Assembly: GCA_948466345.1 (NCBI GenBank) | Contig: CAOKAC010000003.1 | Location: forward strand, 140,812 to 204,811 | Reading direction: 5' to 3' | Length of the DNA: 64,000 nucleotides | DNA from: an uncultured Clostridia bacterium | Lineage (GTDB): Bacteria; Bacillota; Clostridia; Oscillospirales; CAG-272 | Part shown: one piece after another, positions 157 to 40,327 of the stretch | Numbering within the stretch: position 1 is the stretch's first letter | Layout: each line of letters opens with the position of its first letter | Notes under the pieces: model-generated | The model's input: the letters and a program-made list of their open reading frames with translations, nothing else | The model's database searches: none | Told to the model about the DNA's origin: nothing | Translations under genes and position numbers: made by a program

Positions 157-1221
157 ATGACGCAGGAAGAACTTACGCTGGAAAACTTGGGGAGTAGCCT
201 GGATGATTTGGCAAATCTGGATCCACGGGGATATGGCGTGTGTAAAATACTTTATCGGGGCGCTCGGGCATTTCAGGGTGAGGCGCTGACGATGAATGCG
301 GCGAAAAAATTGTGCGCTGCGTTGCGGCAGGATGATGTTGTATATTTAATCAGTGGATTTGTGCTGCGTCCTTATAATAAGGCTGAGACAGATGGTATTA
401 TCAGCACGATGCTGTTGGCCCGTTGTCTGATCCAGGGGTTCGGCGTGCGTCCTGTGGTGATTTGCCCGGATGAGTGCATGAATACGGTAGAAGGACTGGC
501 TTCTATATTAGGCTTCCATCTGACCGATTTGCCCGATCTGTTTTCTATTCCATTAACAATGGCAGCCGTATCTTTTCCGAAGGACACAGCAGCCGCTGAG
601 GATTTTTCGAATACAGTTATTGATACTACCGGTATGCCAAGGGCGGTCGTTTCTATAGAAGCGCCTGGGGCCAATGCCCAAGGCGTGTACCATAATGCTA
701 TCGGTAAATCGGTAACTAATTTGGAGGCAAAAACAGACATACTGTGGGAGAAGCTGTGCAATGCAGGCGTGTTGAATATCGCGATTGGAGACTTGGGCAA
801 TGAAATTGGTATGGGCGCTATTGCAGAGCATATTGAAAAATATATTCCTTATGCTGGAACAGGCGCGTGCTCATGTGGATGTAGCGATGGAATCTTAGCA
901 AAGACAAAAACAGACAACTTAATCACAGCTACTGTTTCAGATTGGGGCTGTTATGGCATGATAGCTGCCATTGCATATTTAAAGAACAATCTTGAACTGT
1001 TTCATGACGGTGCGATGCAGGAGCGTGCTATGCGTAAAGCCGCAGAATGCGGCGTGATCGATATGTATGGATGGGCTGTTCCGGCTATTGATGGAATCGG
1101 GATTGAAATGACCTGCGCGATTGTAGAAGCAATGCGAGGTTGTATAGAGTATACGCTGCGGCTGCGTGAAACCTGTAGCACTTGGTTTGAAAAAACCATT
1201 GAAAAGGGATTCTTTGCATAA
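157..1221 (+). CDS. DUF4392-like (glutamate-cyclase-domain) protein
   Basis: 354-aa ORF, first gene of a tightly packed six-gene operon. Motifs LDPRGYG and IGDLGNEIGMG recall the DUF4392 / D-glutamate-cyclase-like family (recalled from memory, not searched). Confidence 0.5.
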   Translation: MTQEELTLENLGSSLDDLANLDPRGYGVCKILYRGARAFQGEALTMNAAKKLCAALRQDDVVYLISGFVLRPYNKAETDGIISTMLLARCLIQGFGVRPVVICPDECMNTVEGLASILGFHLTDLPDLFSIPLTMAAVSFPKDTAAAEDFSNTVIDTTGMPRAVVSIEAPGANAQGVYHNAIGKSVTNLEAKTDILWEKLCNAGVLNIAIGDLGNEIGMGAIAEHIEKYIPYAGTGACSCGCSDGILAKTKTDNLITATVSDWGCYGMIAAIAYLKNNLELFHDGAMQERAMRKAAECGVIDMYGWAVPAIDGIGIEMTCAIVEAMRGCIEYTLRLRETCSTWFEKTIEKGFFA

Positions 1222-1240
1222 GGAAAAGGGAGGCTTTTGT

Positions 1241-1963
1241 ATGGGATATAAACTGCTTACCTGCGGTGAGTGCGCTGTTACAGTGGAGTTTTCCAGGGAG
1301 ATGGATCCGCACGCCGGAAAAGCGGCGGTAGGGCTTGCGGGGGAGCTCAGACGGCGGGAAACGACAGGAATTTATGAGATTATCCCTACATATCGTTCTG
1401 TGACAATATGCTTTGATCCCCTTACCATTTCTTACAAAGCAGTAAAGCGATTGATATCCAACTGTATGCGCTGCAGGCACACAGAAGCGAGGGAAAAAAA
1501 CGTTCGGCGTTTTTTTCTCCCTGTTTGCTATGGCGGATCATATGGGATGGATTTGAATGATATTGCACAGCGAACCGGTTTGGATCCTCGCGAGGTGGTT
1601 CGGCGGCATATCAGCCGCGAGTATCCGATTAATATGATCGGCTTTTTGCCTGGATTTCCCTATTTGACCGGGATGGATTCCACGATTGCAGTCCCAAGAT
1701 TAGAAAATCCAAGAGAAAAAATTCCTGCTGGATCTGTGGGAATCGGCGGGGAACAGACTGGAGTGTATCCGATTGATTCCCCTGGCGGCTGGCGCCTTAT
1801 CGGCAGAACCCCTGTACGTCTATATGATCCTGACCGAACTCCCCCGGTATTGTATAATGCCGGTGATTGGATTCGTTTTTATCCTGTAAGCGAACAGGAA
1901 TACTTTAGAATAGAAGCAGCAGTGGCTGCGGGTACATATACAGTGGAGACGGAGGAAGTGTAA
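1241..1963 (+). CDS. pxpB: 5-oxoprolinase subunit B (PxpB/KipI, allophanate hydrolase subunit 1 family)
   Basis: ATG 1241 follows GGGAGG; the longer 1166 start would overlap the upstream gene. GFLPGFPYL and SPGGWRLIGRTP motifs are typical of KipI/PxpB. The stop overlaps the pxpC start (TAATG). Confidence 0.85.
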   Translation: MGYKLLTCGECAVTVEFSREMDPHAGKAAVGLAGELRRRETTGIYEIIPTYRSVTICFDPLTISYKAVKRLISNCMRCRHTEAREKNVRRFFLPVCYGGSYGMDLNDIAQRTGLDPREVVRRHISREYPINMIGFLPGFPYLTGMDSTIAVPRLENPREKIPAGSVGIGGEQTGVYPIDSPGGWRLIGRTPVRLYDPDRTPPVLYNAGDWIRFYPVSEQEYFRIEAAVAAGTYTVETEEV

Positions 1964-2910
1964 TGTGTATACGGATAGAAGTACCCGGCCCGCTGACTAC
2001 AGTGCAGGATCTGGGCAGAGTCGGACATATGCACAGCGGATTCCAGCAGTCTGGCGCTATGGACTGGTATGCTGCATCCCTTGCAAATATTTTGTGCGGC
2101 AATGATGTAAACAGTGCGGTATTGGAGATGACCCTGGGTGGAATTACCTGCCGCTTCTTGGAACCGGTGGTCTTTGCCTTATGCGGTGCGGATATGTCTG
2201 CTGTATTAGATGGAGCAGCCGTTCCCATGCAGCAGGCAGTGCTGGCGCCTGCCGGAAGTCTTTTGAAAATGGGAATAGCACAGACTGGATGCCGTACATA
2301 TATGGCGGTGTCGGGCGGGCTGGACGTACCCCTTATTATGGGGAGTCGTTCTACGAACCTGCGTTGCAGGCTCGGCGGCTTTGCAGGCCGAAGCCTGCAA
2401 GCGGGCGATGTACTGTCGGTATTGCCTAGCGTGTCTTTGGTAAGCGGCTCTTGTGTCCCTTGTGAAAAGCCTGCCCATGGCGAGGCTTTGATTCGTGCTG
2501 TTCCTGGTCCGCAAAACGACTATTTTACGAAAAATGGTATACAAACATTTTTTACTGAAGCTTATACTGTAACGCCTGCATCGGATCGGATGGGAATGAA
2601 GCTGTCCGGCCCTGCACCGCAGGCGGTGTCTGGCACGGACATTATCTCGGATGGCATTGCTTTGGGCAGCGTGCAGATACCTGCCGGCGGTCAGCCGATT
2701 ATTTTGCTTTCCGACCGCCAGACAGTCGGGGGATATGCTAAGATTGCTACGGTGATAAAAGCCGATCTGCCAAGATTGGCCCAACTCCGGCCAGGAGATA
2801 CGATCCGATTTGTAAAAACTGGCAGAAAAGAGGCGCTGTCCGCTTTGAATAAAATGCGGGAGCGTTTGACAGACATCCAAGCACAGATACAAATGCAAAG
2901 AAAGGTATAG
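1963..2910 (+). CDS. pxpC: 5-oxoprolinase subunit C (PxpC/KipA, allophanate hydrolase subunit 2 family)
   Basis: 315 aa. [10 protein letters not shown] near the N-terminus and SDRMGMKL / [14 protein letters not shown] motifs are typical of KipA/PxpC. Translationally coupled to pxpB. Confidence 0.85.
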
Positions 2911-2917
2911 CCGAAAT

Positions 2918-3703
2918 ATGAATGATATACACGCCACACCAGCACAGGTACGGGAAAAGATTCGTCAGGGGATTATTACTGGTCAGACCGCAGGTATGTG
3001 TAACGGATATGCACAGGCAAATTTGTGTGTGCTTCCTCGGGAATATGCTTATGACTTTTTGCTGTTTGCCCAGCGGAATCCTGCTCCATGTCCTATTTTG
3101 GAGGTCAGTGATCCTGGAGAACGGCTGCTGTATACGATTGCAAAGAATGCGGACATTGCAACGGATTTTCCCAAATATCGAATTTACATAGACGGTGTAC
3201 TGAAAGAGGAAACGACCGACGCGTCTTCCTTTTGGAGAGAAGACCTTGTTTCCTTTTTAATCGGTTGTTCCTTCTCTTTTGAAGGAGAGCTGTTGGCTGC
3301 CGGAATTCCCGTGCGACATATTGAAGAGGGAAGGAATGTGCCTATGTTTCTTACAAATATTCCTTGCCGGCCGGCGGGTATCTTCCATGGCAATATGGTT
3401 GTGTCGATGCGTCCTATGCCGGCAGACCAGGTTGTGCGCGCAGTAAATGCTACAGCCGCTATGCCGAAGGTACACGGCGCTCCTGTGCATATTGGGGATC
3501 CTGCAGGAATCGGTATTGCTGATATTCACCGACCAGATTTTGGTGACGCAGTAACCGTATATCCTGGCGAGGTACCGGTGTTCTGGCCCTGTGGTGTAAC
3601 ACCGCAAGCCGCTGTGATGGAGGCAAAACCATCCTTTGCGATTACCCATGCGCCGGGACATATGCTGATCACAGATATTCCCAATGCGGCGTTGAAATAT
3701 TGA
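2918..3703 (+). CDS. DUF1445 putative hydro-lyase (YcsI-like, D-glutamate-cyclase-like)
   Basis: 261 aa. N-terminal [26 protein letters not shown] and C-terminal [12 protein letters not shown] are characteristic of UPF0317/DUF1445. A DUF1445 gene (ycsI) likewise lies within the B. subtilis ycsF-kipI-kipA cluster. Confidence 0.75.
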
Positions 3704-3716
3704 ATCGAGGTGTCTG

Positions 3717-4490
3717 ATGAGAAAAAAAGTAGATTTAAACTGTGACTTGGGCGAGGGCTTTGGCACGTATCACATGCATATGGATGGCGACATTATCCGC
3801 TGTATCACATCCGCTAATATCGCGTGCGGATATCACGCTTCCGATCCGCTTATCATGGATCAAACCGTACAGATGGCCCTCCGCGCCGGTGTAGGTCTTG
3901 GCGCGCATCCTGGATATCCCGATCTGATGGGATTTGGCCGCCGCAATCTGCAAGCGTCTCCTGCCGAGGTACAGGCATATGTAACCTATCAGTTGGGAGC
4001 GCTTCATGCCTTTGCCTTGTCACATGGCGGGCGCTTATCCCATGTAAAGCCTCATGGAGCTATGTACAATATGGCGGCAAAGGAGCCATCCCTTGCTAAA
4101 GCTATTTGCGCCGCAGTATACCAATTTGACAAAAGCCTTATTTTACTTGGCCTTTCTGGTAGTTGTATGCTGGAAGAGGCAGAGAAAATGGGGCTCCCTG
4201 TCGCTAGAGAAGTATTTGCAGATCGAGCATATGAGTCGGACGGCACGCTGGTCGCCCGTACAAAATCTGGCGCCATGATTGAAGATGAAGATTTAGCAGT
4301 GGAGCGGGTGGTACGCATGGTGCAGGATGGATGGGTGCAGGCTATCGACGGAACAGACATAGCGATTTGCGCAGATTCCATATGTGTTCATGGTGACGGC
4401 CCCAAAGCCCTGCTATTTACGCAGAAAATCCGAATGGCCTTGGAAAACGCAGGTATACAAATAGCGCCTCTTGCAGAAGTGGTAGGGTAA
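3717..4490 (+). CDS. pxpA: 5-oxoprolinase subunit A (PxpA, LamB/YcsF family)
   Basis: MRKKVDLNCDLGEGFG N-terminus and KPHGAMYN motif are diagnostic of LamB/YcsF. Sits in the operon with pxpB/pxpC. Confidence 0.9.
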   Translation: MRKKVDLNCDLGEGFGTYHMHMDGDIIRCITSANIACGYHASDPLIMDQTVQMALRAGVGLGAHPGYPDLMGFGRRNLQASPAEVQAYVTYQLGALHAFALSHGGRLSHVKPHGAMYNMAAKEPSLAKAICAAVYQFDKSLILLGLSGSCMLEEAEKMGLPVAREVFADRAYESDGTLVARTKSGAMIEDEDLAVERVVRMVQDGWVQAIDGTDIAICADSICVHGDGPKALLFTQKIRMALENAGIQIAPLAEVVG

Positions 4491-4514
4491 AACATTCAAT
4501 TTTGGAGTGACGCA

Positions 4515-5669
4515 ATGGGATATCAACGAATTTGTGCAAAAATTGACTTGAACGCGGTGGAAAAAAATGTTGCAGGAGTGCGCGCACGTATTCCCGGCAG
4601 CACAAAAATTATGGCGGTGATTAAAGCCGATGCTTATGGCCATGGCGCAGTTTTTCTTTCCGAATTTTTAAAAAATCAAGTAGACTGGTTTGGTGTTGCC
4701 ACGGCAGACGAGGCGTTGGAACTCCGAAATCATGGATGTGAAAAACCGATTCTTATTTTGGGATATGTCCATCCGGAAGAATATCCGATGCTTGTGGGAA
4801 AAAATATAACTACAACGATTTTTCGGTATGCAGATGCAAAATCATTGTCAGATGTGGCGCTGCTGCAAGAAAAGAAAGCGGAAGTGCATATCAAAATCGA
4901 TACGGGTATGGGGCGGATCGGCTATCCGGTCAGTCGGGAGACCGCAGAGGAAATTCAGAAAATTTCCCATCTTCCAGGACTTTGCATTACCGGTATATTT
5001 AGTCATTTCTATGGAGCTGATGCGAAGGATAAAACAGCGGTGCTCGCCCAGCGTGACCGTTTTGACCGTATGATTAATATGCTGGATAAAATAGGCGTGG
5101 ATATCCCTCTGAAGCATTTAAACAATAGCGCCGGTACTATGGAACTGGATAAACACTACGATATGGTGCGTATGGGCATCATGCTGTACGGCATCTATCC
5201 GTCCGATGAAATGGATCTATCCTATCCTTTATATCCTGCAATGGAACTTATTTCCCATATTTCCCATGTGAAAACGATCCAAGCGGGAGAGGGTGTCAGT
5301 TATGGACACATCTATGTAGCCAGTCATACTGAACGGCTAGCGACCATTCCTGTTGGGTACGCAGACGGGTATCCTAGAAGCCTATCCAATAAAGGCTATG
5401 TCTTGATACGCGGCAAACGCTGTCCAATTCGTGGCAGGGTTTGTATGGACCAGATGATGGTGGATGTCTCGGACATAGAGAATGTGCAGGTAGGCGAGTC
5501 GGTGGTTTTGATGGGCTGCGATGGAGAAGAGCAGCTTACTGCAGCACAAGTGGGAGATACTGCCGGGTCCTTCAGTTATGAGTTTGTCAGCGGTATCGGA
5601 ATGCGGGTTCCACGAGTGTATTATTATAATGGTAAAGAAGTAAAATTGATAAATCGACTGCAAAATTAA
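4515..5669 (+). CDS. alr: alanine racemase
   Basis: 384 aa. PLP-lysine motif AVIKADAYGHG plus a C-terminal beta-domain (VSYG, GYADGYPR). Starts 25 nt after pxpA, so probably co-transcribed. Confidence 0.9.
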   Translation: MGYQRICAKIDLNAVEKNVAGVRARIPGSTKIMAVIKADAYGHGAVFLSEFLKNQVDWFGVATADEALELRNHGCEKPILILGYVHPEEYPMLVGKNITTTIFRYADAKSLSDVALLQEKKAEVHIKIDTGMGRIGYPVSRETAEEIQKISHLPGLCITGIFSHFYGADAKDKTAVLAQRDRFDRMINMLDKIGVDIPLKHLNNSAGTMELDKHYDMVRMGIMLYGIYPSDEMDLSYPLYPAMELISHISHVKTIQAGEGVSYGHIYVASHTERLATIPVGYADGYPRSLSNKGYVLIRGKRCPIRGRVCMDQMMVDVSDIENVQVGESVVLMGCDGEEQLTAAQVGDTAGSFSYEFVSGIGMRVPRVYYYNGKEVKLINRLQN

Positions 5670-5808: not shown

Positions 5809-7941
5809 ATGAAAAAGCTGTTTTCTATTGTTTTAATGGCAGCTCTGCTTGTTGCTTGCATCACACCGGCGCTCTATTCCTCCGCAGCGGACGTTGCTCC
5901 GTCCTTTGTGGTTGCAGAGAACACCGATTTTGATGAAAACGCAGGCACGGTCGACGTAACTTTTGGTATTGCAAACAACCCAGGCATTTCCGAATTAAAG
6001 GTGCTGGTGTACTACCTTGAATCTGAATTGTCTATTGCTAAGTTTTCGAATGGAACTGTTTTTGATGCTGCTGATAACGTGCAGGGAGCAACGCTAAAGT
6101 CTGATAACAGAAATATGAAACCATATTTCTCGGCAGAGGAGTTTGGTGATGTTGTCTATAATGTAACCGAGTTTGATGTATATGCTCCGACTATGGACGC
6201 AGACGAAACTGAAAATGGAACATTTCTTAACTTAACTTTCAATTTTGCTGGCGCACATCCTGCAGGTGCAGAATTTACATATGGTATTAAAGTAATGTCT
6301 GCAACTAATGCTGAAGGTGACCCTATTGACTTTGCTGGTAAGCAGGAAGGCAAAGTTACTGCTACTCCTGATCCCTACAAAGATGTTTACGACAACTTTA
6401 CTGTGTTCACTACAGACGGAACTGTGGATGTGGATGCAAAGGAAGTAACTGTAGACCTTCGTCTTGTAAATAACCCTGGTATCAATGCGCTTCGTATTTT
6501 CATTGCTTACGATGAAGCATTGCAGCTGACCACTCTCCAGCCTGTTGACGGTATCTTTACCGGAAGCGAGTTCGAGGTAAGTGAAGATAAGCATGCAGAT
6601 CCTTCTGCAAGCGCATCCGCAAAGAATGCTTTCGCGCATAAGAATATTTCCCTTGATGGAAAAGCTTGCGCTATTATTCTGGCAACAGCAGACAAAGAAG
6701 AAAACAGAACTGCCGGCGGCGTTTTGGCTCGTCTTACCTTTGCATTGCCCGAAGATATGAAGCAGGGCGATAGTTTCCCCATTGACTTCTGCTGGACTGG
6801 TACAGATATAGTACAGCTTGATATGGACAACATGGATGAGTATGGCAAGCCTGTACTGAAATTCTTGGAACCTGACAATCCTACCTGCGCTGTTGGAACC
6901 AAGGTTTGTGAGCATCCGAATGTAGTTCTCACAGAAACAACAGCTCCTTCTTGTACAGCAACAGGCGTAAAGAGCGGTGAGTGTCCGGATTGCGGTCAAA
7001 CTGTTGAAGAAGTTATTCCTATGCTTCCGCATACACCTTCTGCTGATACCAAAGTAACACCTCCTACTTGTACTGAAGCGGGTAAGATTACAACTGTATG
7101 TGAAGTTTGTGGCAACGATATTGAAACAGTAGATGATCCTGATAACGCTGCACTGGGTCATGATGAAGTAAATGTAAGAGAAAATATTACTAAACCCGCA
7201 ACTTGTGCAGAAGCAGGTCTTAAAGATATTATTTGCGGTAGATGTGATGTAGTTCTGCAAAAAGATGTAGAAATTACTAAATTGCCTCATACAGAAGCAA
7301 CTAGAGTTGTAGATCCTACTTGTACAGAAGGTGGTAAGATTGTTACCTACTGCTCTGTTTGTAACGAAATCATTAATGAAGAGGTAGATCCTGATCATGC
7401 GGACGCTTTGGGTCATACTGCAGGCGCACCTGTAGTGACCAAGCCTGCAACCTGCAAAGAAGAAGGTTCTCAGGATATCTACTGCACAGTATGCGAAGAA
7501 AAAATTGCAACAGAAACTATTGAGATGCTGGAGCATGATGTAGTTACAGTAGTAGTGGATCCTACTTGTGTTGATGCAGGTAAAATTGTTACGAAATGTT
7601 CTCTTTGTGGTGATATATTCAGTGAAGAAGAGGATGTAGATCATCCCGCAACCGGTGTGCACACTCCTGGTGAACCTGAGATTGTTGAGCCGACAGCTAC
7701 AGAAGAAGGCACTAAGACAATTAAGTGCTCCGTTTGTGGCGAAGTGCTCTCCACTGAAAAGATCCCCGCAAAAGGCGTTGATTCTAGTGATGCAGGCACA
7801 ACAAAAGCTCCTGACAAGAATACAGGCAAAAATCCTGTGACTGGCGATAACATGGTATATGTAATCGTTATTGCTGCTGTTGCAGTTATTGGTTGCAGTG
7901 CTGTAGTTGTTATTAGAAAGAAGAAAGCTTCTGAAAGATAA
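5809..7941 (+). CDS. secreted cell-surface protein: two cohesin-like domains, seven His/Cys3 mini-repeats, NPxTG-type sorting signal
   Basis: Signal peptide MKKLFSIVLMAALLVACITPALYSSAA. Two cohesin-like beta-sandwich regions (aa ~30-185 and ~195-355, e.g. VTVDLRLVNNPGINALRIFIAYD). A Cys-rich repeat block. C-terminus is KNPVTGD, then a hydrophobic helix, then RKKKASER. Confidence 0.8.
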   Translation: MKKLFSIVLMAALLVACITPALYSSAADVAPSFVVAENTDFDENAGTVDVTFGIANNPGISELKVLVYYLESELSIAKFSNGTVFDAADNVQGATLKSDNRNMKPYFSAEEFGDVVYNVTEFDVYAPTMDADETENGTFLNLTFNFAGAHPAGAEFTYGIKVMSATNAEGDPIDFAGKQEGKVTATPDPYKDVYDNFTVFTTDGTVDVDAKEVTVDLRLVNNPGINALRIFIAYDEALQLTTLQPVDGIFTGSEFEVSEDKHADPSASASAKNAFAHKNISLDGKACAIILATADKEENRTAGGVLARLTFALPEDMKQGDSFPIDFCWTGTDIVQLDMDNMDEYGKPVLKFLEPDNPTCAVGTKVCEHPNVVLTETTAPSCTATGVKSGECPDCGQTVEEVIPMLPHTPSADTKVTPPTCTEAGKITTVCEVCGNDIETVDDPDNAALGHDEVNVRENITKPATCAEAGLKDIICGRCDVVLQKDVEITKLPHTEATRVVDPTCTEGGKIVTYCSVCNEIINEEVDPDHADALGHTAGAPVVTKPATCKEEGSQDIYCTVCEEKIATETIEMLEHDVVTVVVDPTCVDAGKIVTKCSLCGDIFSEEEDVDHPATGVHTPGEPEIVEPTATEEGTKTIKCSVCGEVLSTEKIPAKGVDSSDAGTTKAPDKNTGKNPVTGDNMVYVIVIAAVAVIGCSAVVVIRKKKASER
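6907..7773 (+). repeat. seven tandem ~40-45-aa coding repeats, H-x(9-13)-C-x(3-4)-G-x(5-6)-C-x2-C
   Basis: Repeats read directly, e.g. HTPSADTKVTPPTCTEAGKITTVCEVCG, HTEATRVVDPTCTEGGKIVTYCSVCN, HDVVTVVVDPTCVDAGKIVTKCSLCG. The last unit has lost its first Cys (EPTATEEGTKTIKCSVCG). Similarity is also visible at DNA level. Confidence 0.8.
7831..7938 (+). other. C-terminal cell-wall sorting-signal-like region (NPVTGD + TM + basic tail)
   Basis: NPVTGD is followed by NMVYVIVIAAVAVIGCSAVVVI and RKKKASER. This tripartite layout is typical of sortase substrates, with an NPxTG variant motif. Confidence 0.55.
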
Positions 7942-8095: not shown

Positions 8096-8761
8096 ATGAA
8101 CAAGAGAATAAGTGTAGTACTCCTTCTTTTATTATCGAGCTTTCTATTTTCTAGCTGCGGTGTTAGGGACTTTCTCTCTACACTTGGTTTTGATACGCAC
8201 GATTACGAGGGCGAAGAACTATTAGAGACATACGATGGGGATACCGAAAAAGCAGATGAATTAACAGAAATGTTAGAAATTTTGACGATTCATTCCCCTC
8301 TACTCATGCCATTTGAGGGAGCTAAAGAGGCTATGATCTCCTGTCGTGATTCTGTTCTGAATTATATGCTAAATAAAAGCTATTCAAAATATACTGGAAA
8401 CATTACGCTTTTAGATCAGGTGAAAGAAGCATACCCACATATGCAGGTTTCAGCAATTATTCCTGCTGAGGATTTTGAAAATACAGTCTATACTTATTTC
8501 GGAGGCAGACAAAAAATCAAAAATGTAACCAGCACGCTTTTTATGTATTTGGAAAAAGTCAATGCATATATTACTGTTGCCCAGCCGCAGGAGAGTAATG
8601 TACAATTTGAAATTCAAAAAATAGAAGAAACAGAAAATACCTACCGTGTCTATTTTCGGTGTATATTGTATGAAGAAGTATCTCCTTTGTACAAAACACT
8701 GATTATCAAACGTGACGATGGCAATTCTTATTTCCGTTATCTGCGAGAGTATGATGCGTAA
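8096..8761 (+). CDS. putative lipoprotein, unknown function
   Basis: AAAGGAGG RBS. Signal peptide with lipobox (LLLLLSSFLFSSCG). No recognisable catalytic motif. Confidence 0.6.
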   Translation: MNKRISVVLLLLLSSFLFSSCGVRDFLSTLGFDTHDYEGEELLETYDGDTEKADELTEMLEILTIHSPLLMPFEGAKEAMISCRDSVLNYMLNKSYSKYTGNITLLDQVKEAYPHMQVSAIIPAEDFENTVYTYFGGRQKIKNVTSTLFMYLEKVNAYITVAQPQESNVQFEIQKIEETENTYRVYFRCILYEEVSPLYKTLIIKRDDGNSYFRYLREYDA

Positions 8762-13813: not shown

Positions 13814-13872
13814 TGATTCATGTCAAAGGCATATTTGTCTGGGCATAAAGACCAATGAAAAGAGGAAATAAT

Positions 13873-14439
13873 ATGAAAAAAATCAACTTGTTTCTTGTGC
13901 TGTCTCTGCTTGTTTGCTGCTTTGCAGGACTTGTAGGATGTGAAAAAACAGATGTGCCTAACACACCGGAGAAAAACATTAAGGTCACAGGTGAACTGTC
14001 CGATATCGTTTCGGCAGTGGATGAGAAAATTTCTTTTGAAAAAAATGTCAGTGAAGTGATTTACAAAGCAGAAGACGATAGCGAAATGATGATGCTTCTG
14101 TATGGTGTAGTGGATATACCTGCGGCAGATCATTTAATAGATTATGTAATAACAAGTCCCGCAAATACCCATCACACCTTTGCTGTGTTTGTTTTTGATG
14201 ATGAAATGACTGAAGACGATTTTACGCAGGTACGCGAAACGGTTAACGAAACTTATATGCAAACCCGTGCGTCCTCCTTACAAATGTATTTTCCGGAAGA
14301 ATATGCGACCATGACCTGGGCTATAGACAATCCGGATCTGGTGTGGAGACAGTACGACAATGCGCTGGTACTGATTATCAATGGAGACGAAGAACCAACC
14401 GGAGCTTTTGAAGCTTTTGAAGCTGCTGCACTGAAGTAA
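13873..14439 (+). CDS. putative lipoprotein, unknown function
   Basis: ATG 13873 behind GAGGA. Signal peptide with lipobox (LLVCCFAGLVGCEK). Confidence 0.55.
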   Translation: MKKINLFLVLSLLVCCFAGLVGCEKTDVPNTPEKNIKVTGELSDIVSAVDEKISFEKNVSEVIYKAEDDSEMMMLLYGVVDIPAADHLIDYVITSPANTHHTFAVFVFDDEMTEDDFTQVRETVNETYMQTRASSLQMYFPEEYATMTWAIDNPDLVWRQYDNALVLIINGDEEPTGAFEAFEAAALK

Positions 14440-15514: not shown

Positions 15515-15543
15515 TTGACAAGATTGTTTTTGGATGCTATAAT
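15515..15543 (+). promoter_or_regulatory. sigma-A-type promoter of the T-box leader
   Basis: TTGACA (15515-15520), 17-nt spacer, TATAAT (15538-15543). Confidence 0.75.
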
Positions 15544-15552
15544 ACTAAAAAA

Positions 15553-15808
15553 GCGTGGAAGGGGACCCCCGTTCCAATGCGCAAGATGCAGAGAGACGCT
15601 GGTTGGTGAAAAGCGTTGCTTGTGTGGAACTACTCGCCCCTGAGCTGTCGGCTGAAATTTTTTTAGTAGGCCAGACCGGAACCCTCCGTTATCTTAGGGA
15701 AGGGCATGTAGTGCCTAATGAGTGGACGCATGATTTGCGTCAATAAGAGTGGTACCGCGGAAGCTATGCTTTCGTCTCTTGCTTTAGTGCAGAGACGAAA
15801 GCTTTTTT
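15553..15808 (+). promoter_or_regulatory. T-box riboswitch leader (probable Leu, CUC specifier)
   Basis: K-turn GCGUGGAAGGGG / CCCCUGAGC. AG bulge AGAGAG (15590-15595). Distal loop GGUUGGUGAAA. Specifier loop 3' side UA-CUC-G (CUC 15633-15635). T-box sequence AAUAAGAGUGGUACCGCGG (15743-15760). Terminator GCTTTCGTCTCT / AGAGACGAAAGC + TTTTTT (15768-15808). Confidence 0.85.
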
Positions 15809-15883
15809 ATTTGCATTTTTCCAGGTAATCGTCTCTGATCAATACTTTGAAAAAATTATTGAGGAGAAAGGTAGAATGATTTT

Positions 15884-18415
15884 ATGAAACTCGCATTTTC
15901 TACATTAGGTTGTCCGAATTTTAGCTGGCCTGATATTTACGCTATGGCGAAAGATGTCGGCTTTAGCGGCATTGAACTCAGAGGTCTTGGCGATGAAATT
16001 TTTTCTGTTCACGCGGAGCCCTTTAGTGAAGAAAATATTGAGAAGACCAAAGAAAAACTGAAAAAATTACATTTGGAAATTCCGTGTCTTTCTTCCGGCT
16101 GCGCTCTGCGCTTTGCAGAACATTTGGAAGAAAACGTGCAAGAGATTGGTGAATATATTCGTCTGGCGAAACAGCTTGGAACTCCCTATATCCGTATTTT
16201 AGGAGACCGCACTGCAGAAGTTACAACAGATTTTGATGATACTGTAGTGGTAGAAGCTTTGCGGAGGCTGGCGCCGCAGGCGGAAGCTGCGGGGGTCATG
16301 CTGCTTGTGGAGACAAACGGTGTATATACAGATACACAGCGTTTATGCTCCGTGCTCAACGCGGTAGAAAGTGATGCGGTGGGAGCTCTTTGGGATATGC
16401 ATCATCCTTATCGATTTGGCGGAGAAAAGCCACAGCAGACGATTCAAAATCTTGGCGCGTATATTAAATATACCCATATCAAAGATTCTGTTATGAACGG
16501 CGAAATAGTAGAGTATCGAATGATGGGAGAAGGGAATCTTCCTATTTCTGACTTTCTGGCGGCGCTCCGTTCTATCAATTATGAGGGGTACATTTCTCTG
16601 GAGTGGCTCAAACGCTATATGCCCGATTTGGAGTCCTCCGGAATCGTATTCCCGCATTTTGTAAACTACATGCAGCAGTACATCGGTTCTTCCGACATGG
16701 CGGGCAGATTGCAGACCAGTGCTAGAGGCGATGGAAAATATGTATGGCCCAAAGAAAGACTGATTGATCTGACTTTTCCCCAGGTGCTGGATCGTATGTG
16801 TGACGAGTTCCCGAATCAGTATGCATTCCGATATACCACCTGCGATTATACCAGAACATACAGCCAGTTCCGAGAAGACGTGGATAATTTTGCCCGGTCC
16901 CTTATTGGTATGGGTGTCAAACAGGGAGATCATGTAGCAATTTGGGCGACAAACGTACCTGCGTGGTATATTACCTTTTGGGCGACAGTGAAAATCGGCG
17001 CTGTGCTTGTAACAGTTAATACCGCGTATAAGATCCATGAACTGGAATATTTGCTTCGTCAATCAGATACACATACTCTTGTTATGGTGGACAGCTATAA
17101 AGACTCCGATTATGTGAAAATCATCAACGAATTGTGTCCGGAACTGCAGACCGCAAAGAAGGGAGCCCCCCTGCGGATTAAGAAATTGCCATTCTTACGC
17201 AATATTATTACCTGTGAGTCTGACCAGAAGGGATGTTGGAATTGGGAAGAGGCTTTAGCGGCAGGAGAGAGTGTGCCTGTCAGCGAAGTATATCGTCGTG
17301 CGTCTATGATCAGCAAGCATGATGTATGTAATATGCAGTATACCTCCGGTACAACCGGGTTTCCCAAGGGCGTCATGCTTACCCATTATAATGTGGTAAA
17401 TAACGGCAAAGCAATTGGAGACTGTATGGATTTATCTACAGCAGACCGGATGATGATTCAGGTGCCAATGTTCCACTGTTTCGGTATGGTGTTGGCTATG
17501 ACCGCATCTATGACGCATGGTGTCACTATGAGTCCGATTCCTGCATTTTCTCCCAGCAAGGGACTGGCCTGTATTACAAAGGAGAAAATCACTTGTTTTC
17601 ATGGTGTGCCTACTATGTTTATCGCTATGCTTGGGCATGCTGACTTTGAAAAAACGGATTTCAGTCACATGCGTACCGGCATTATGGCCGGCAGCCCTTG
17701 TCCCATTAAGGTAATGGAGCAGGTAATCGAAAAAATGCATATGAGCGAGATCTGTATCACATATGGGCAGACCGAGGCGTCTCCGGCAACAACGATGTCT
17801 AAAATTACAGATTCTATTGAAACCAGAGTAAACACGGTGGGAAGTCCTATCTTTGGCGTAGAATGCAAAATTGTAGATCCGGAAACGGGTGAAGAGCTTC
17901 CCGACAATGTGGACGGTGAATTTGTGGCCAGAGGCTATAATATCATGAAAGGATATTATAAAATGCCTGAAGCTACTGCTGCTGCAATTGATGCAGACGG
18001 CTGGCTCCATTCCGGGGATATGCTGCGTCGTCTGCCGGATGGGAACTACAAAGTAACCGGCCGCTTAAAGGATATGATTATTCGCGGCGGAGAAAATATT
18101 TATCCAAAAGAAATTGAAGATTTTATTTATACCCACCCGAAGGTAAACGATGTGCAGGTGATTGGTGTTCCCGACAAGGATTACGGAGAAGAGATCATGG
18201 CCTGCGTCATTCTGAAGGAGGGTGAGACATCTACAGAAGAAGAGATCAAGGCATATGTACGGGATCATATGGCAAAGCACAAAACGCCCCGATATGTGGC
18301 TTTTGTAGATGCGTTCCCCATGAATGCGGCGGGTAAAATCCTTAAGTATAAAATGCGCGAGGATGCGGTGAAGCTGCTGAATCTTACAGATGCTAGCAAG
18401 ATTGTAACGGCATAA
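15884..18415 (+). CDS. fusion protein: xylose-isomerase-like TIM-barrel (AP endonuclease 2 family) domain + AMP-forming acyl-CoA synthetase
   Basis: Single 843-aa ORF. aa 1-~270 (MKLAFSTLGCPNFSW...YISLEW) look like sugar-phosphate isomerase/epimerase TIM barrels. aa ~290-843 carry adenylate-forming motifs (MQYTSGTTGFPKGVMLTH, YGQTE, GWLHSGD, IIRGGENIYPKEIE). Confidence 0.85.
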   Translation: MKLAFSTLGCPNFSWPDIYAMAKDVGFSGIELRGLGDEIFSVHAEPFSEENIEKTKEKLKKLHLEIPCLSSGCALRFAEHLEENVQEIGEYIRLAKQLGTPYIRILGDRTAEVTTDFDDTVVVEALRRLAPQAEAAGVMLLVETNGVYTDTQRLCSVLNAVESDAVGALWDMHHPYRFGGEKPQQTIQNLGAYIKYTHIKDSVMNGEIVEYRMMGEGNLPISDFLAALRSINYEGYISLEWLKRYMPDLESSGIVFPHFVNYMQQYIGSSDMAGRLQTSARGDGKYVWPKERLIDLTFPQVLDRMCDEFPNQYAFRYTTCDYTRTYSQFREDVDNFARSLIGMGVKQGDHVAIWATNVPAWYITFWATVKIGAVLVTVNTAYKIHELEYLLRQSDTHTLVMVDSYKDSDYVKIINELCPELQTAKKGAPLRIKKLPFLRNIITCESDQKGCWNWEEALAAGESVPVSEVYRRASMISKHDVCNMQYTSGTTGFPKGVMLTHYNVVNNGKAIGDCMDLSTADRMMIQVPMFHCFGMVLAMTASMTHGVTMSPIPAFSPSKGLACITKEKITCFHGVPTMFIAMLGHADFEKTDFSHMRTGIMAGSPCPIKVMEQVIEKMHMSEICITYGQTEASPATTMSKITDSIETRVNTVGSPIFGVECKIVDPETGEELPDNVDGEFVARGYNIMKGYYKMPEATAAAIDADGWLHSGDMLRRLPDGNYKVTGRLKDMIIRGGENIYPKEIEDFIYTHPKVNDVQVIGVPDKDYGEEIMACVILKEGETSTEEEIKAYVRDHMAKHKTPRYVAFVDAFPMNAAGKILKYKMREDAVKLLNLTDASKIVTA

Positions 18416-18420
18416 AAATA

Positions 18421-18457
18421 AAAAAAGGCCTGTCAAAATTTATGACAGGCCTTTTTT
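18421..18457. terminator. bidirectional intrinsic terminator
   Basis: AAAAAAGGCCTGTCA / TGACAGGCCTTTTTT, a perfect hairpin with an A-run and a T-run. Confidence 0.8.
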
Positions 18458-18940: not shown

Positions 18941-19007
18941 TTGACAATTGTTTCACAGTTATGATATACTAAATACGCGTATGACTTGTTTTCCAAAAAC
19001 AAGTCAT
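18941..19007 (+). promoter_or_regulatory. promoter plus 5'-proximal perfect 12-bp inverted repeat upstream of fakB
   Basis: TTGACA (18941-18946), 18-nt spacer, TATACT (18965-18970). Then ATGACTTGTTTT-cca-AAAACAAGTCAT (18981-19007). Confidence 0.6.
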
Positions 19008-19054: not shown

Positions 19055-19927
19055 ATGCTTATGGTAGATTCATTTATTATATTGACAGATTCCGGAAGCG
19101 ATATTACCCAAGAAATGGCTGAAAGCATGCAGGTGCAGGTGATGCCGCTCATGTATACCTTAGACGAGGAAGATCCAATGCCTGGGGATGAGGTAGATAT
19201 TAAGAACTTTTATCGCCAGCTGCGTGAGGGGAAAAGTGCCAAAACCTCTGCTGCCAATTATGAAGATTTGACAAGAACGCTGGAGACGATTGTCTGTGGC
19301 GGACATGATGTATTATATATTGCATTTTCATCGGGGCTTAGCAGTACTGCTAGCACAGCGATGCTGGTTGCAGGAGAACTCTGCGAGAAATATCCGGAGC
19401 GAAAAATTTTTGTGGTAGATTCGCTGGCGGCTTCCCTTGGACATGGACTGCTTGTATATTTAGCTTCCCGCTGTCGCGCAGATGGAAAATCTATCGAGCA
19501 GGTACGAGACTTTGTGGAGGAAAACAGACTTCGCCTTTGCCACTGGTTTACAGTGGATGATCTGCATCATTTGAAGCGGGGCGGTCGCGTATCCGCAGCT
19601 ACAGCGGCTATCGGCACCATGCTGTCTATCAAACCGGTGCTGCATGTAGATGATGCGGGACACCTGATCAATGTATCTAAAGCGAGAGGACGCAAGGCAT
19701 CGCTTGTATCGTTAGTGGAGCAGATGGAGAAAACAGCCGTTGATCCGGCGGGACAAACTGTATTTATCAGTCACGGAGACGCGCTGGAGGACGCCCAGCA
19801 GGTTGCGCAGATGGTACGTGAAAAGATGGGTGTGCAGGATATACAAATCGGGTATATTGGCCCGGTAATCGGTGCACATTCCGGGCCCGGCACTGTTGCG
19901 TTGTTTTTCCTTGGCACACAGCGTTAA
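19055..19927 (+). CDS. DegV family fatty-acid-binding protein (FakB-like)
   Basis: 290 aa. IILTDSGSDI N-terminus and the overall pattern are typical of DegV. Immediately upstream of a FakA-like DAK2 gene. Confidence 0.85.
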   Translation: MLMVDSFIILTDSGSDITQEMAESMQVQVMPLMYTLDEEDPMPGDEVDIKNFYRQLREGKSAKTSAANYEDLTRTLETIVCGGHDVLYIAFSSGLSSTASTAMLVAGELCEKYPERKIFVVDSLAASLGHGLLVYLASRCRADGKSIEQVRDFVEENRLRLCHWFTVDDLHHLKRGGRVSAATAAIGTMLSIKPVLHVDDAGHLINVSKARGRKASLVSLVEQMEKTAVDPAGQTVFISHGDALEDAQQVAQMVREKMGVQDIQIGYIGPVIGAHSGPGTVALFFLGTQR

Positions 19928-19955
19928 ATTTTGTCTTACAAGAGGAAGTCACAAA

Positions 19956-21596
19956 ATGAAGATGAATGGTTCTATGTATCGGGATATGGTGGTTTCTGCC
20001 GCTTGTTCTCTGGACAACCAAAAAGATGTAATTAATAATTTGAATGTTTTTCCTGTGCCTGACGGTGATACTGGCATTAATATGAGTCTGACAATGAGCG
20101 GCGTGCGTGGAGATTTTGTGTCCTTTGCCGGGACGCTTGGCGAATGTGCACAAAAGGCCGCCAATTTGATGCTGCGGGGAGCCAGAGGCAATTCAGGTGT
20201 AATTCTATCCCTGTTTTTTCGCGGTATCGCAAAGGCATGGGCCAATGTAGAAGAGGCAGCGGACTGTAGGGAAATTGTAAAAGGATTTTCCAAAGGTGTT
20301 TCAGAAGCCTATAAGGCTGTTATGAATCCAACAGAGGGTACGATTCTCACTGTTATGCGGGTCATGACGGAAACGGCTGTGTCCAAAATAGAAGAAGAGC
20401 AGTGGGAAGACAATATACAGGAGTTATTTGGTTTGATGCTGGAGGCAGCAAAGAGTGCGCTGGAAAAAACACCGGAACAGCTTCCTATTTTAAAGCAGGC
20501 TGGCGTAGTAGATTCTGGCGGATGTGGGTTTGTTGCCGTTATCGAGGGAATGAAAGCTTGTTTGGATGGTCGTCCGATTACGGCGGCAGCATCGGATCTC
20601 CAACCAAATGAGGCGGCAGACTTTCGTGCCTTTCAAACAGAGGATATACGCTATGCCTATTGTACGGAATGTATTGTAGGCAAAAGCCCTCGATATGCAG
20701 GTGAAAATACTACGGAGGATTTGCACCGCTTTATTATGAAGCTGGGGGACAGTGTAGTCTATGTGGATGATAGTGAATTGATTAAGCTCCATGTGCACAC
20801 GAACGATCCTGGAAGGGTACTTACAGAAGCACTGCGGTACGGTGTTCTGGAAACTGTAAAAATAGAAAATATGAAACAGCAGCACTCATCGCTATCCGGA
20901 TCACAGCCTGCGACTTCATCCTCTCAGATTACAGAACCGGAAAAGAAATATGGTTTTGTAACTGTGTGTATAGGGCAGGGAATGGAAGATTTGTTTCGCG
21001 ACCTGGCAGCAGATCAGATCGTAAGCGGCGGACAGACGATGAATCCCAGTACAGATGAGATTGTAGATGCTGTGCAAAGGACACCAGCAAAAACGGTATT
21101 TGTACTTCCCAACAATAAAAATATTTATATGGTCAGTCAGCAGGCTGCAAAAATTGTGAATGATCGTAAGGTAGTGGTGTTGAATACTACTTCTGTGCCG
21201 GAAGGGGTGGCAGCAATGCTGGCTTTTGATTCTGAGGCTGACTGTGAAACCAATACGGCGGCGATGGAGGCTGCTATCAAACATGTTACTACTTTGTCCG
21301 TCACTTATGCGGTACGAGATACGGAGATTGGGGAGACACTTATTAAAGAAGGCGAGATACTCGGACTGATAAACGGAAAGATTGCATGTTCTTCCTCTAC
21401 ACAGGAAGGTTGTGTAGGCAGTATGATAGAGTCCGTTCCAGAAGCATCGGTTGTTACGGTGTATTATGGAGAAGGAGTGACTGCTTTGCAGGCGGAAGCT
21501 GTGTCGTCATTGTTGCAAAAACGATATCCAGAGGCAGAAGTGATGTCTCTTTATGGCGCACAGCCGGTGTATAGTTACATTATTTCTATTGAATAA
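19956..21596 (+). CDS. DAK2-domain protein (YloV/FakA-like fatty acid kinase ATP-binding subunit)
   Basis: ATG 19956 behind AGAGGAAG. LNVFPVPDGDTGINM and ARGNSGVILS motifs of the DhaL/DAK2 domain. About 546 aa, like YloV/FakA. Confidence 0.8.
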   Translation: MKMNGSMYRDMVVSAACSLDNQKDVINNLNVFPVPDGDTGINMSLTMSGVRGDFVSFAGTLGECAQKAANLMLRGARGNSGVILSLFFRGIAKAWANVEEAADCREIVKGFSKGVSEAYKAVMNPTEGTILTVMRVMTETAVSKIEEEQWEDNIQELFGLMLEAAKSALEKTPEQLPILKQAGVVDSGGCGFVAVIEGMKACLDGRPITAAASDLQPNEAADFRAFQTEDIRYAYCTECIVGKSPRYAGENTTEDLHRFIMKLGDSVVYVDDSELIKLHVHTNDPGRVLTEALRYGVLETVKIENMKQQHSSLSGSQPATSSSQITEPEKKYGFVTVCIGQGMEDLFRDLAADQIVSGGQTMNPSTDEIVDAVQRTPAKTVFVLPNNKNIYMVSQQAAKIVNDRKVVVLNTTSVPEGVAAMLAFDSEADCETNTAAMEAAIKHVTTLSVTYAVRDTEIGETLIKEGEILGLINGKIACSSSTQEGCVGSMIESVPEASVVTVYYGEGVTALQAEAVSSLLQKRYPEAEVMSLYGAQPVYSYIISIE

Positions 21597-28635: not shown

Positions 28636-29463
28636 TTATAAATTGATAGATTTTAAGTATTCGATGCTAGCCCGGGCGCATTCCATTTGATCCATTCCTA
28701 GAGAGGGATTGTCCTGTTCAACGATTATCCATTTGGAACCTGCATCTTTTGCGGCTTCCAAAATCGCAGGGATATTCAGCATTCCTTCTCCTGTGGGCCG
28801 AAATTCCAGTTTGGACTCCCCTTCGTCTGCTTCTGTCTCAGGCAAGCCAATCAGCGCATACAGATGCGCGGGCTTTTCACCGCTCATATAAAAATCTTTT
28901 AAATGCACCACCGGGCAGCGGCCGGTAAATTTGCGGATATAAGCGGCCGGGTCTTCTCCGGAGACGGTTACCCAGCAGGTGTCAAGCTCTGCCTGCAGTT
29001 CTTTGGGCGTCAAATGGTCAAACTGGTATTCCAATTTATACTGACCGTCTATTTTCTCAAATTCAAATTCATGATTGTGGTACAGCATCTGGATGCCTTT
29101 GGACCCGGCCTGCTTTCCAATTAGGCGCATGTTTTCCAAAACGGTTTCATAGTCCGCGTCTCCTGGGCGCTGTCCTTCAACCATATAAGGGTATGCAATA
29201 TATTCAACTCCCAAGGTTTGATAAAGAGAAAGCTGGTTTTCCAGATCTGTTGTAAGCATATTATAAGATACATGGGCGCTGATGATTTTCAGTCCCAGTT
29301 CATCGCATAATGCACGAAATGTATGTGGGTCCATATCGTATGAACCGCCGCAGGGTTCTATCCCATCATATCCCATGGCGGCGATTTGCCTCAGGGTACC
29401 TGCGGGATCCTTTTCCATAAAATCTCTGACGCTGTATAGCTGAATTGCGATTGGCAGTGCCAT
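28636..29463 (-). CDS. sugar phosphate isomerase/epimerase (xylose-isomerase-like TIM barrel)
   Basis: ATG 29463 behind GGAGG. MALPIAIQLYSVRD start and HNHEFEF metal-site motif. Confidence 0.75.
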   Translation of the reverse strand: MALPIAIQLYSVRDFMEKDPAGTLRQIAAMGYDGIEPCGGSYDMDPHTFRALCDELGLKIISAHVSYNMLTTDLENQLSLYQTLGVEYIAYPYMVEGQRPGDADYETVLENMRLIGKQAGSKGIQMLYHNHEFEFEKIDGQYKLEYQFDHLTPKELQAELDTCWVTVSGEDPAAYIRKFTGRCPVVHLKDFYMSGEKPAHLYALIGLPETEADEGESKLEFRPTGEGMLNIPAILEAAKDAGSKWIIVEQDNPSLGMDQMECARASIEYLKSINL

Positions 29464-29572
29464 AAAAACCTCCAAGCTGATATGATTCATATTATTATAT
29501 ACGCTTCTATGCAAAAAAACAAGATAAAAACCAAGGTTTTCCATAAAAAATCATTTCCAGTCAACGCATCTC

Positions 29573-35780: not shown

Positions 35781-36296
35781 ATGACAGAAGAAAAAGAGTT
35801 TATATTTGGAGAAGTGCGGGAAAAAAAGCGGTCTTATTTGGTATATTTGCCGATTGCTGCATTTTTGATTTGTATTGCCGCAGGAACATATATAGGGGGA
35901 GACGGCGGCGCTTTTGTTCGTTTGGAAAATCCCTTTGATAAAGACACCTCCTTTTTCTTCACCTGTGCGGGGATATGCTTTTTAGATATTGTACAAACTT
36001 TGCTGATTGGAGTGGGTGCAGGTCAGCGTATGTTTATTCCCGTTGCAACGGGAATCGGGGCGCTTCGAGGAATGGCTCTTGGTGCAGCAATTTCTTTTTG
36101 TACCGAAAATGCGCTTCCCAGTGCGGCAGTCGGCATGACAGCTTCGTTTGGTGCCGTATCGGCACTGCTCCTTTGTTACGGGACATTTATGCATCGCATC
36201 TCTTGTGAGACCGGTTTTTTGTATCGTATTCTATGTTATTTTGCAGTAAGCGGAGCAGCAGCGCTGCTGCGATTGCTGCCGTATCTGTTGCTTTGA
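35781..36296 (+). CDS. hypothetical integral membrane protein
   Basis: 171 aa, about 4-5 hydrophobic helices, no recognisable motif. Confidence 0.5.
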   Translation: MTEEKEFIFGEVREKKRSYLVYLPIAAFLICIAAGTYIGGDGGAFVRLENPFDKDTSFFFTCAGICFLDIVQTLLIGVGAGQRMFIPVATGIGALRGMALGAAISFCTENALPSAAVGMTASFGAVSALLLCYGTFMHRISCETGFLYRILCYFAVSGAAALLRLLPYLLL

Positions 36297-38250: not shown

Positions 38251-38333
38251 ATATATTATACCTCCTCTGAGCATAAGACAGCAAGTATTTACTGCCTTCG
38301 CTATATCATATGCGCAGGTATACAAGTTGACAA

Positions 38334-38654
38334 TCAGATGTCCGCCTCTATAAAATCCGGGAAAGCTTCTTCTAAAAGCTGAAATCCTCGTAAAATCGCC
38401 ATAGTATTGTCCAAAATCAAGGCGTTATCGTCCGGCAGTTCAAAATCCATTCGTACATATCCTGCAGAAAAATCTTCTCTGTAACGCTCAATTTTTCCTT
38501 CCTCGTATGCTTCACGCAGCAGGGCACGCAGTGTGTAACATAAAATCGACACCGCAGAGCATAAAATATCCTGTCCGGCAGAGGCATATTCTGTATGTCC
38601 AACACATTCAAATAAGTACGTGTCATAATACGTGTCAAAAGAAATTTTGGTCAT
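38334..38654 (-). CDS. Prp/YsxB-like cysteine protease (phage-associated)
   Basis: 106 aa. GHTEYASAGQDILCSAVSIL aligns with the Prp catalytic His/Cys block (GHAG...GQDIVCAAIS in B. subtilis YsxB). ATGA overlap with the portal stop. Confidence 0.7.
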   Translation of the reverse strand: MTKISFDTYYDTYLFECVGHTEYASAGQDILCSAVSILCYTLRALLREAYEEGKIERYREDFSAGYVRMDFELPDDNALILDNTMAILRGFQLLEEAFPDFIEADI

Positions 38655-40288: not shown

Positions 40289-40327
40289 ATTTGATTCATC
40301 CTCCTTGCCGCTATGCGGCTTTTTATT

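Follow-up and report, generated by a model that had tools for sequence, protein, structure and literature searches.

A leucine T-box leader precedes a conserved TIM-barrel–acyl-CoA ligase fusion gene with a probable role in leucine supply

We describe here a T-box leader RNA and the gene behind it in a 64,000-nucleotide (nt) stretch of DNA (the window) from an uncultured Clostridia bacterium (GTDB lineage Bacteria; Bacillota; Clostridia; Oscillospirales; CAG-272; GenBank assembly GCA_948466345.1, contig CAOKAC010000003.1, positions 140,812 to 204,811 of the forward strand). The leader stands before an open reading frame (ORF) that joins a xylose-isomerase-like TIM barrel to an AMP-forming acyl-CoA ligase. 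Considered by itself, the RNA is almost certainly a leucine T-box. The RNA is conventional; what is out of the ordinary is its target, an acyl-CoA ligase fusion. The fusion family is large and strongly conserved, and its genomic links, compared over about 160 related loci, appear to tie it to leucine supply. The reading that we favor, at a probability of roughly 0.6, is that the leucine T-box controls a fusion family serving leucine supply, most likely by activating isovalerate for reductive carboxylation. An earlier note on this DNA had proposed a path from a branched acid through its acyl-CoA and a 2-oxoacid to leucine. We consider this circumstantially supported by the LeuA-like, PFOR (pyruvate:ferredoxin oxidoreductase-type) and IlvE genes found in operons of a sister clade, and by isoleucine and valine T-boxes on MbcS-like ligase genes.

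The leader RNA is an ordinary member of Rfam family RF00230. It was the sole match in an Rfam search of the 64-kb window, with 111.1 bits, above the gathering threshold of 93 bits, and aligning with model positions 1-219 without truncation. This covariance search had been proposed in the earlier note, which had also listed the promoter, K-turn, AGAGAG bulge, distal loop, T-box sequence and 12-bp terminator; all of these were recovered in place (Table 1). The promoter consists of TTGACA (15515-15520), a TG-bearing 17-nt spacer and TATAAT (15538-15543), and equivalent promoters were seen ahead of orthologous leaders. In the covariance-model alignment, the base of Stem I forms the K-turn (GA/K-turn motif; GCGUGGAA ... 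UGAGC), and Stems II, IIA/B and III are all present. The terminator stem is formed by GCUUUCGUCUCU (15768-15779) paired with AGAGACGAAAGC (15791-15802). Because its 5' arm is also the 3' strand of the antiterminator, the two structures are mutually exclusive. A single-sequence minimum-free-energy fold recovered the terminator hairpin but not the canonical Stem I, and the Stem I structure was therefore taken from the covariance model. The predicted partner of the UGGU bulge is the ACCA 3' end of a tRNA with discriminator A73. The compatibility of the variable T-box base U with A73 had been pointed out earlier; UGGU was invariant in all leaders compared (55/55 in the window's own clade, clade 1, and 45/45 in the sister clade, clade 2). 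The leader thus combines the RF00230 score, the parts of Stem I, a UGGN bulge with a competing terminator and a consistent specifier.

At the specifier triplet the covariance model places CUC, a leucine codon, in agreement with the first reading of this leader. The codon is followed by a purine, G15636, and then by a CCCC strand that pairs with GGGG (15561-15564). This arrangement satisfies the positional rule, by which the codon is followed by one base and then by the end of the loop (TBDB; PMC7778990). The codon was also read in 56 motif-positive clade-1 leaders (the window and 55 further loci) with a codon-blind parser that seeks only the K-turn and its closing helix. It returned CUC in 48 leaders and CUG in four; two leaders that the script had mis-parsed (L037 and L043) carry CUC when read by eye, which brings CUC to 50/56. 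The loops of L012 and L022 read CCUCUGG-U, which allows two readings: CUG followed by G, giving Leu and a helix of 5 bp, or UGG followed by U, giving Trp and a helix of 4 bp. The leader of L012 has a low score (69.7 bits). Across the orthologous leaders, the -1 frame gives ACU, UCU, GCU or CCU and the +1 frame UCN or UGG. The bases before the codon vary freely (GAACUC, AUCUC, GGCUC, UCCUC and others), and CUC or CUG is kept. Since only the CUN frame retains one amino acid, the switch appears to be leucine-specific.

The helix beside the codon covaries among the orthologous leaders (GGGG/CCCC, AGGG/CCCU, GGAG/CUCC, GAGG/CCUU and CGGG/CCCG). In 16 of these leaders, three Stem I helices were paired in 97.9% of cells, compared with 36-51% when the partners were slid, and seven Stem I pairs showed compensatory changes, with a covariation score of 0.55 compared with 0.06-0.22 after sliding. 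These counts cover the well-aligned helices, with the structure taken from the Rfam alignment. RNAalifold, run on a MAFFT alignment of the 16 Stem I sequences that was poor in its middle part, returned the distal helix only.

A different codon, UAC (Tyr) or ACU (Thr), might be suspected, as the specifier loop has ACCCCC on its 5' side and not the AGUA S-turn that is usual there. On its 3' side, the sequence UACUCG allows three frames on paper, and UGGU would fit tRNA-Tyr, which also has A73. Both the covariance model and the position rule (PMC7778990) nevertheless give CUC, and the -2 and -1 frames vary among orthologues while CUC/CUG persists. The comparison of orthologous leaders ruled out UAC, ACU and UCG as specifiers, and we regard a non-leucine specifier as scarcely credible. 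Thus, of the caveat attached to the first codon call, the absence of AGUA stands, and the insecurity of the codon is removed; UAC and ACU, which the earlier note had named as outcomes that would count against it, were not what the covariance model returned.

The fusion ORF encodes a protein of 843 amino acids (aa), and Pfam confirmed the two-part architecture recognized earlier. AP_endonuc_2 (PF01261) matched residues 21-244 (4e-30, 105.7 bits, cut-off 31.1), AMP-binding (PF00501) residues 303-692 (2e-93, 313.6 bits, cut-off 29.9) and AMP-binding_C (PF13193) residues 743-818 (6e-21, 75.6 bits, cut-off 24.5). The latter two domains make the ligase a member of the ANL superfamily, and the motif YTSGTTGFPKG is present in the translation. 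The best NCBIfam model for the ligase was PRK12583 (684.4 bits, profile positions 13-555 of 558), of which the protein is not a member at the cut-off of 832 bits, although it is the closest family. MbcS (NF047394) was not among the 25 best families listed for the protein, which does not belong to it. For the barrel, an AlphaFold model was obtained with a predicted local distance difference test (pLDDT) score of 91. A Foldseek search with this model retrieved Art22, ketose 3-epimerases, IolI and AsbF with a probability of 1.0 at no more than 19% identity; a sequence search of the PDB returned generic ANL ligases only and nothing close for the barrel. The metal tetrad E143, D171, H198 and E240 is conserved in 84/84 clade-1 proteins, which suggests that the barrel is an active enzyme. 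Score, fold and Glu-Asp-His-Glu ligands all identify it as a xylose-isomerase-like TIM barrel.

The barrel domain was used to scan one genome per species. At least 593 genomes matched, and the best 80 loci, every one of them a fusion of 840-848 aa, were taken. The homologues form more than 120 clusters (835-890 aa, most 843-844 aa) at 75-93% identity. Homologues from Yeguia, Ligaoa and Zongyangia are 77-78% identical to the window protein, an unusual degree of conservation, and identity over the whole protein between genera is 77-79%. Where the gene is split (L085 and L086), the two halves stay adjacent. In 55/83 loci the start codon is preceded, at a distance of 75-257 nt, by the T-box core motif UGGUACC(G/A)CG, and L048 is one further T-box carrier (93.9 bits). 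When 18 motif-positive loci were scanned with Rfam, 9 exceeded the stringent threshold (96-115 bits), and seven other motif-positive leaders, which fell short of it, all gave full-model matches when rescanned by E-value (70-93 bits, E 4e-13 to 5e-19). The search for further fusions and their leaders that the earlier note had suggested therefore found T-boxes at about two thirds of the retrieved clade-1 loci. Its description of the arrangement as unusual applies to the choice of an acyl-CoA ligase as target; it does not extend to rarity, as both the fusion and its T-box are widespread in Clostridia.

The fusion gene is monocistronic in the window and usually so in clade 1, where the leucine T-box is its only conserved companion. 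In one clade-1 locus (L074), the fusion gene is preceded by a PFOR gene, from whose end it is separated by 56 nt. A NiCo riboswitch (L028, 6644-6726) and a TPP riboswitch (L011, 7496-7599) lie downstream of the fusion and are apparently unrelated to it. No T-box was found at Rfam's threshold at the loci with free-standing or split barrels (L084-L087). In L084 (4106-5807), a free-standing barrel homologue of 268 aa with 51% identity begins 29 nt after a class-IV aminotransferase gene, whose product falls under the cut-offs for both branched-chain aminotransferase (BCAT) and D-amino-acid transaminase; this locus also contains ilvN-like and leuA genes. The position of the free-standing barrel near these genes points to branched-chain amino acid metabolism.

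Genes with a plausible role in leucine synthesis accompany the fusion in its sister clade. The nearest seemingly unfused ligase, P0126, was rejected as truly unfused: its closest relatives are fusions, and as it lies on a 3.3-kb contig it may be a fragment. A search with P0126 uncovered the sister clade, whose fusions have 813-846 aa and are 57% identical to the window protein; some come from Bacteroidales. In L088-L093, the fusion gene shares its first 4 nt with the end of a gene for a LeuA-like protein of 466-472 aa with HMGL-like and LeuA_dimer domains. Its best family is 2-isopropylmalate synthase (IPMS), and its score of 287 bits against a cut-off of 532 marks it as a divergent paralogue, possibly with an altered function. 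In the Bacteroidaceae loci, a PFOR gene encoding 1161 aa begins 32 nt after the fusion (TIGR02176, 1670 bits). A metagenome scan provided 80 further sister-clade loci. The LeuA-like gene lies immediately upstream of the fusion in 79/80 of them, and a PFOR gene lies downstream in 20/80. In L096, L098, L112 and L117, the gene directly downstream of the fusion encodes a branched-chain aminotransferase (IlvE) of 356 aa, and in the last three of these PFOR follows.

The sister-clade operon has a leucine T-box in front in Firmicutes. Among the 69 sister-clade loci with enough upstream sequence, 45 carry a T-box ahead of the LeuA-like gene; the script read CUG in 31 of these leaders and CUC in 5, and the remainder show CUG or CUC by eye. 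Leucine T-boxes thus accompany both clades, at odds with the possibility, raised at the outset, that homologous fusions are never linked to leucine-responsive leaders. Operons of the L098 type bring together, behind a leucine T-box, the genes for the ligase fusion, a 2-oxoacid:ferredoxin oxidoreductase and a branched-chain aminotransferase. In the barrels of the sister clade, D171, H198 and E240 are retained and the equivalent of E143 is Lys in 71/81. This replacement argues against one metal-dependent step shared by both clades. R104 and D108, which are invariant in clade 1, are lost in the sister clade.

Separate switches for isoleucine and valine stand beside some of these operons. In L091-L093 and L159-L173, the leucine operon is flanked by HTH_19-Cupin_2-AMP-binding genes, whose full-length copies encode 752-776 aa. 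Their best family is MbcS, although the two copies in L091 (431 and 420 bits) do not reach its cut-off of 850 and are not members. A separate T-box precedes each flanking ligase gene (Rfam 99 and 95 bits); one ligase has AUC (Ile) as its specifier, the second has GUC or GUA (Val). The leucine operon and the isoleucine and valine T-boxes together form a three-switch cluster. Purified MbcS has a Km below 10 uM for 2-methylbutyrate and isobutyrate and above 500 uM for isovalerate (PMC10026030). Its poor use of isovalerate fits a separate type of ligase for the leucine skeleton. MbcS-type ligases behind isoleucine and valine switches and another type behind leucine switches would be the pattern expected if the acid activated by each ligase shares its carbon skeleton with the corresponding amino acid.

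Rumen and gut anaerobes convert isovalerate, isobutyrate and 2-methylbutyrate by reductive carboxylation to leucine, valine and isoleucine, which needs an acyl-CoA ligase, a 2-oxoacid:ferredoxin oxidoreductase and a branched-chain aminotransferase. We propose that the fusion gene would act in such a route as follows. Uncharged tRNA-Leu(GAG) would pair through its anticodon with CUC and through its ACCA end with the UGGU bulge. Its binding would stabilize the antiterminator (15746-15779) and keep the terminator (15768-15802) from forming, and the fusion gene would be transcribed. The ligase domain would then convert isovalerate to isovaleryl-CoA, a PFOR/VOR-type ferredoxin oxidoreductase would reductively carboxylate isovaleryl-CoA to 4-methyl-2-oxopentanoate, and IlvE would transaminate this product to leucine. 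A less likely substrate would be isobutyrate, feeding LeuA through 2-oxoisovalerate.

Several observations weigh against this proposal. The window contains no PFOR, IlvE or LeuA-like gene, and no tRNA genes were found within its 64 kb. Clustering of gene neighbourhoods at 84 clade-1 loci revealed no neighbour common to more than 7 loci, and about 30% of the orthologues lack a T-box (e.g. L002, Merdivicinus and Flemingiibacterium). The ligase falls under the curated cut-off of every NCBIfam model. The metal site of the barrel is perfectly conserved although a plain isovalerate route needs no barrel, and the role of the TIM barrel is left unexplained by that route. Equally unexplained by a simple isovalerate route is the obligatory LeuA-like partner in the sister clade; its near-universal presence there may mean that the chemistry is tied to isopropylmalate-type intermediates, not to isovalerate.

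The conserved barrel and the LeuA-like partner are the features that an undescribed step of the leucine pathway would account for. The barrel would isomerize, epimerize or dehydrate a hydroxy- or oxo-acid that the ligase activates, working with the LeuA-like enzyme, for example in a bypass of LeuCD/LeuB or in a route from another precursor, and not in simple isovalerate salvage. Such a step would fit the obligatory fusion, kept at 840-848 aa in 80/80 clade-1 loci with even split halves adjacent, the canonical metal tetrad of all 84 clade-1 proteins, and the divergent LeuA-like paralogue at 79 of 80 sister-clade loci (287 vs 532 bits). It would also fit the free-standing barrel homologue beside a class-IV aminotransferase gene, near ilvN and leuA, and the use of a different, simpler type of ligase behind the isoleucine and valine switches. 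However, this step would be without chemical precedent, no characterized relative of the barrel exceeds 19% identity, and in 71 of 81 sister-clade proteins Lys stands in place of the first metal ligand. The PFOR and IlvE partners, moreover, are fully explained by reductive carboxylation. We therefore hold this alternative to be unlikely. Of somewhat wider reach is the idea that the fusion, with its LeuA-like partner in the sister clade, is an undescribed way into leucine biosynthesis, with a new step catalysed by the metal-dependent barrel, and that with the ligases behind isoleucine and valine T-boxes it makes up the missing isoacid-to-amino-acid gene set of gut and rumen Clostridia and Bacteroidales; this is possible, if doubtful.

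Isovaleryl-CoA made from external isovalerate could also serve as the primer for iso-odd branched-chain fatty acids. Leucine would then be spared, since with isovalerate in use scarce leucine would not be degraded for membrane synthesis. A precedent is MbcS of Staphylococcus aureus, which activates short branched acids for fatty-acid synthesis (PMC10026030), and lipid genes do occur near fusions: FakB (DegV, 19055-19927) and FakA (19872-21596) are encoded just downstream in the window, and MGDG synthase and PlsY genes lie upstream of the fusion in L002. The Fak genes, however, have a near-consensus promoter of their own (18941-18970, 11/12), and this neighbourhood is seen in only 4-5 of 84 loci. 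Furthermore, the LeuA-like, PFOR and IlvE genes of the sister clade make amino acids, not lipids, and what a T-box reads is tRNA charging, a translation signal. A role as fatty-acid primer thus seems quite improbable, and isovalerate activation for reductive carboxylation to leucine is the reading that we prefer.

Table 1. Features of the leader and fusion gene in the window, and isoleucine and valine T-boxes at two sister-clade loci (positions for L091 and L165 are those of the respective locus)
Feature	Position	Strand	Basis or remark
Sigma-70-type promoter	15515-15543	+	12/12 consensus match
T-box leader, full length	15547-15782	+	Rfam RF00230, 111.1 bits, E 1.1e-23
Stem I with K-turn, specifier loop, AG bulge and distal loop	15553-15645	+	Covariance-model alignment
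AG bulge AGAGAG	15590-15595	+	Sequence and covariance-model alignment
Distal loop GGUUGGUGAAA	15601-15611	+	Sequence and covariance-model alignment
Specifier codon CUC (Leu)	15633-15635	+	Aligned to the model's specifier triplet
Antiterminator, including T-box sequence	15746-15779	+	Covariance-model alignment
T-box sequence AGAGUGGUACCGCGG	15746-15760	+	Sequence and covariance-model alignment
T-box bulge UGGU	15750-15753	+	Covariance-model alignment
Intrinsic terminator, 12-bp stem and U-tract (U6)	15768-15812	+	Sequence; minimum-free-energy fold
Fusion ORF, 843 aa	15884-18415	+	TIM barrel and AMP-forming acyl-CoA ligase
Xylose-isomerase-like TIM barrel, residues 1-~270	15884-16693	+	PF01261
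AMP-forming acyl-CoA ligase, residues ~290-843	16751-18412	+	PF00501, PF13193
Bidirectional terminator hairpin closing the transcription unit	18421-18457	.	15-bp stem flanked by A and T runs
Ile and Val T-boxes, L091	2428-2655 and 5012-5246	-	Specifier codons AUC, GUC/GUA
Ile and Val T-boxes, L165	~8808 and ~11603		Example from L159-L173

Elsewhere in the window, a second xylose-isomerase-like barrel gene (28636-29544, minus strand, 302 aa) was set aside as unrelated to the fusion barrel, with which it shares 22% identity over 167 residues. A prolyl-tRNA synthetase gene with a ProRS-C_1 domain (58450-59889, minus strand) has no T-box at Rfam's threshold. Genes for a P22-like portal and a large terminase (38651-41713) suggest a prophage or its remnant, and the region 157-5669 contains D-glutamate-cyclase-like genes, genes for 5-oxoprolinase-type subunits (CT_C_D, CT_A_B, LamB/YcsF) and an alanine racemase gene. 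No Pfam match at E <= 1e-5 was obtained for a 710-aa ORF (5809-7941, plus strand) or for ORFs of 171-360 aa at 8096-8761, 35781-36296, 37408-38325 and 53459-54541, and none at 1e-4 for a 194-aa ORF at 13855-14439.

These findings add acyl-CoA ligases to the T-box regulon and draw attention to a strongly conserved TIM barrel within a fusion encoded behind a T-box. The specifier of a T-box names the amino acid served by the gene behind it, and here the specifiers label three uncharacterized ligase families as serving leucine, isoleucine and valine. If the proposed route holds, genes can be named behind the conversion of isoacids to branched-chain amino acids, a physiology of rumen and gut anaerobes that has been known for decades and that underlies gut cross-feeding and the isoacid supplementation of ruminants. 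The set of T-box-labelled ligases makes this old physiology genetically testable. As regards earlier descriptions, neither Wels 2008 nor the TBDB paper (PMC7778990) contains the word "CoA", and Sun 2013 contains none of "acyl-CoA", "CoA ligase" and "CoA synthetase"; two key T-box reviews were not covered, and an earlier mention is possible. Full-text literature searches on the fusion or on an isovalerate-CoA ligase returned nothing relevant.

Compared with known leucine T-boxes such as those of Bacillus subtilis leuS and ilv-leu, the window leader has the same Stem I parts, Stems II, IIA/B and III, UGGN antiterminator and competing terminator, and with its 3' C the specifier CUC likewise obeys the "C-rule". 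It differs in the 5' side of the specifier loop, where ACCCCC replaces the usual AGUA, and in its target, which is an acyl-CoA ligase fusion and not an aminoacyl-tRNA synthetase, a canonical biosynthetic operon or a transporter. MbcS of S. aureus (NF047394) is an AMP-forming ligase for short branched-chain acids from the medium that feeds fatty-acid synthesis and is poor on isovalerate, and T-box control of it is not reported (PMC10026030). The window ligase, in contrast, is of another subfamily, with PRK12583 as its best model, and carries a TIM barrel.

P. putida PP_4063 and B. subtilis YngI, which we take to be members of PRK12583, adjoin leucine-catabolic genes. PP_4063 emerged from randomly barcoded transposon sequencing (RB-TnSeq) data as one of two candidates for the CoA ligation of isovalerate (bioRxiv 10.1101/2020.07.04.188060). 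PRK12583-type enzymes are catabolic and unfused to a barrel, unlike the window ligase, which at 684 bits stays under their cut-off of 832. The fusion loci also differ from classical reductive carboxylation, which requires neither a TIM barrel nor a LeuA-like enzyme. With the enzymes of PF01261 (ketose 3-epimerases, IolI, AsbF, hydroxypyruvate isomerase and Art22), the window barrel shares the fold (TM 0.72-0.78) and the Glu-Asp-His-Glu tetrad at an identity of at most 19%; the fusion barrel stands apart from them in being joined to a ligase and, in most sister-clade members, in carrying Lys in place of the first Glu.

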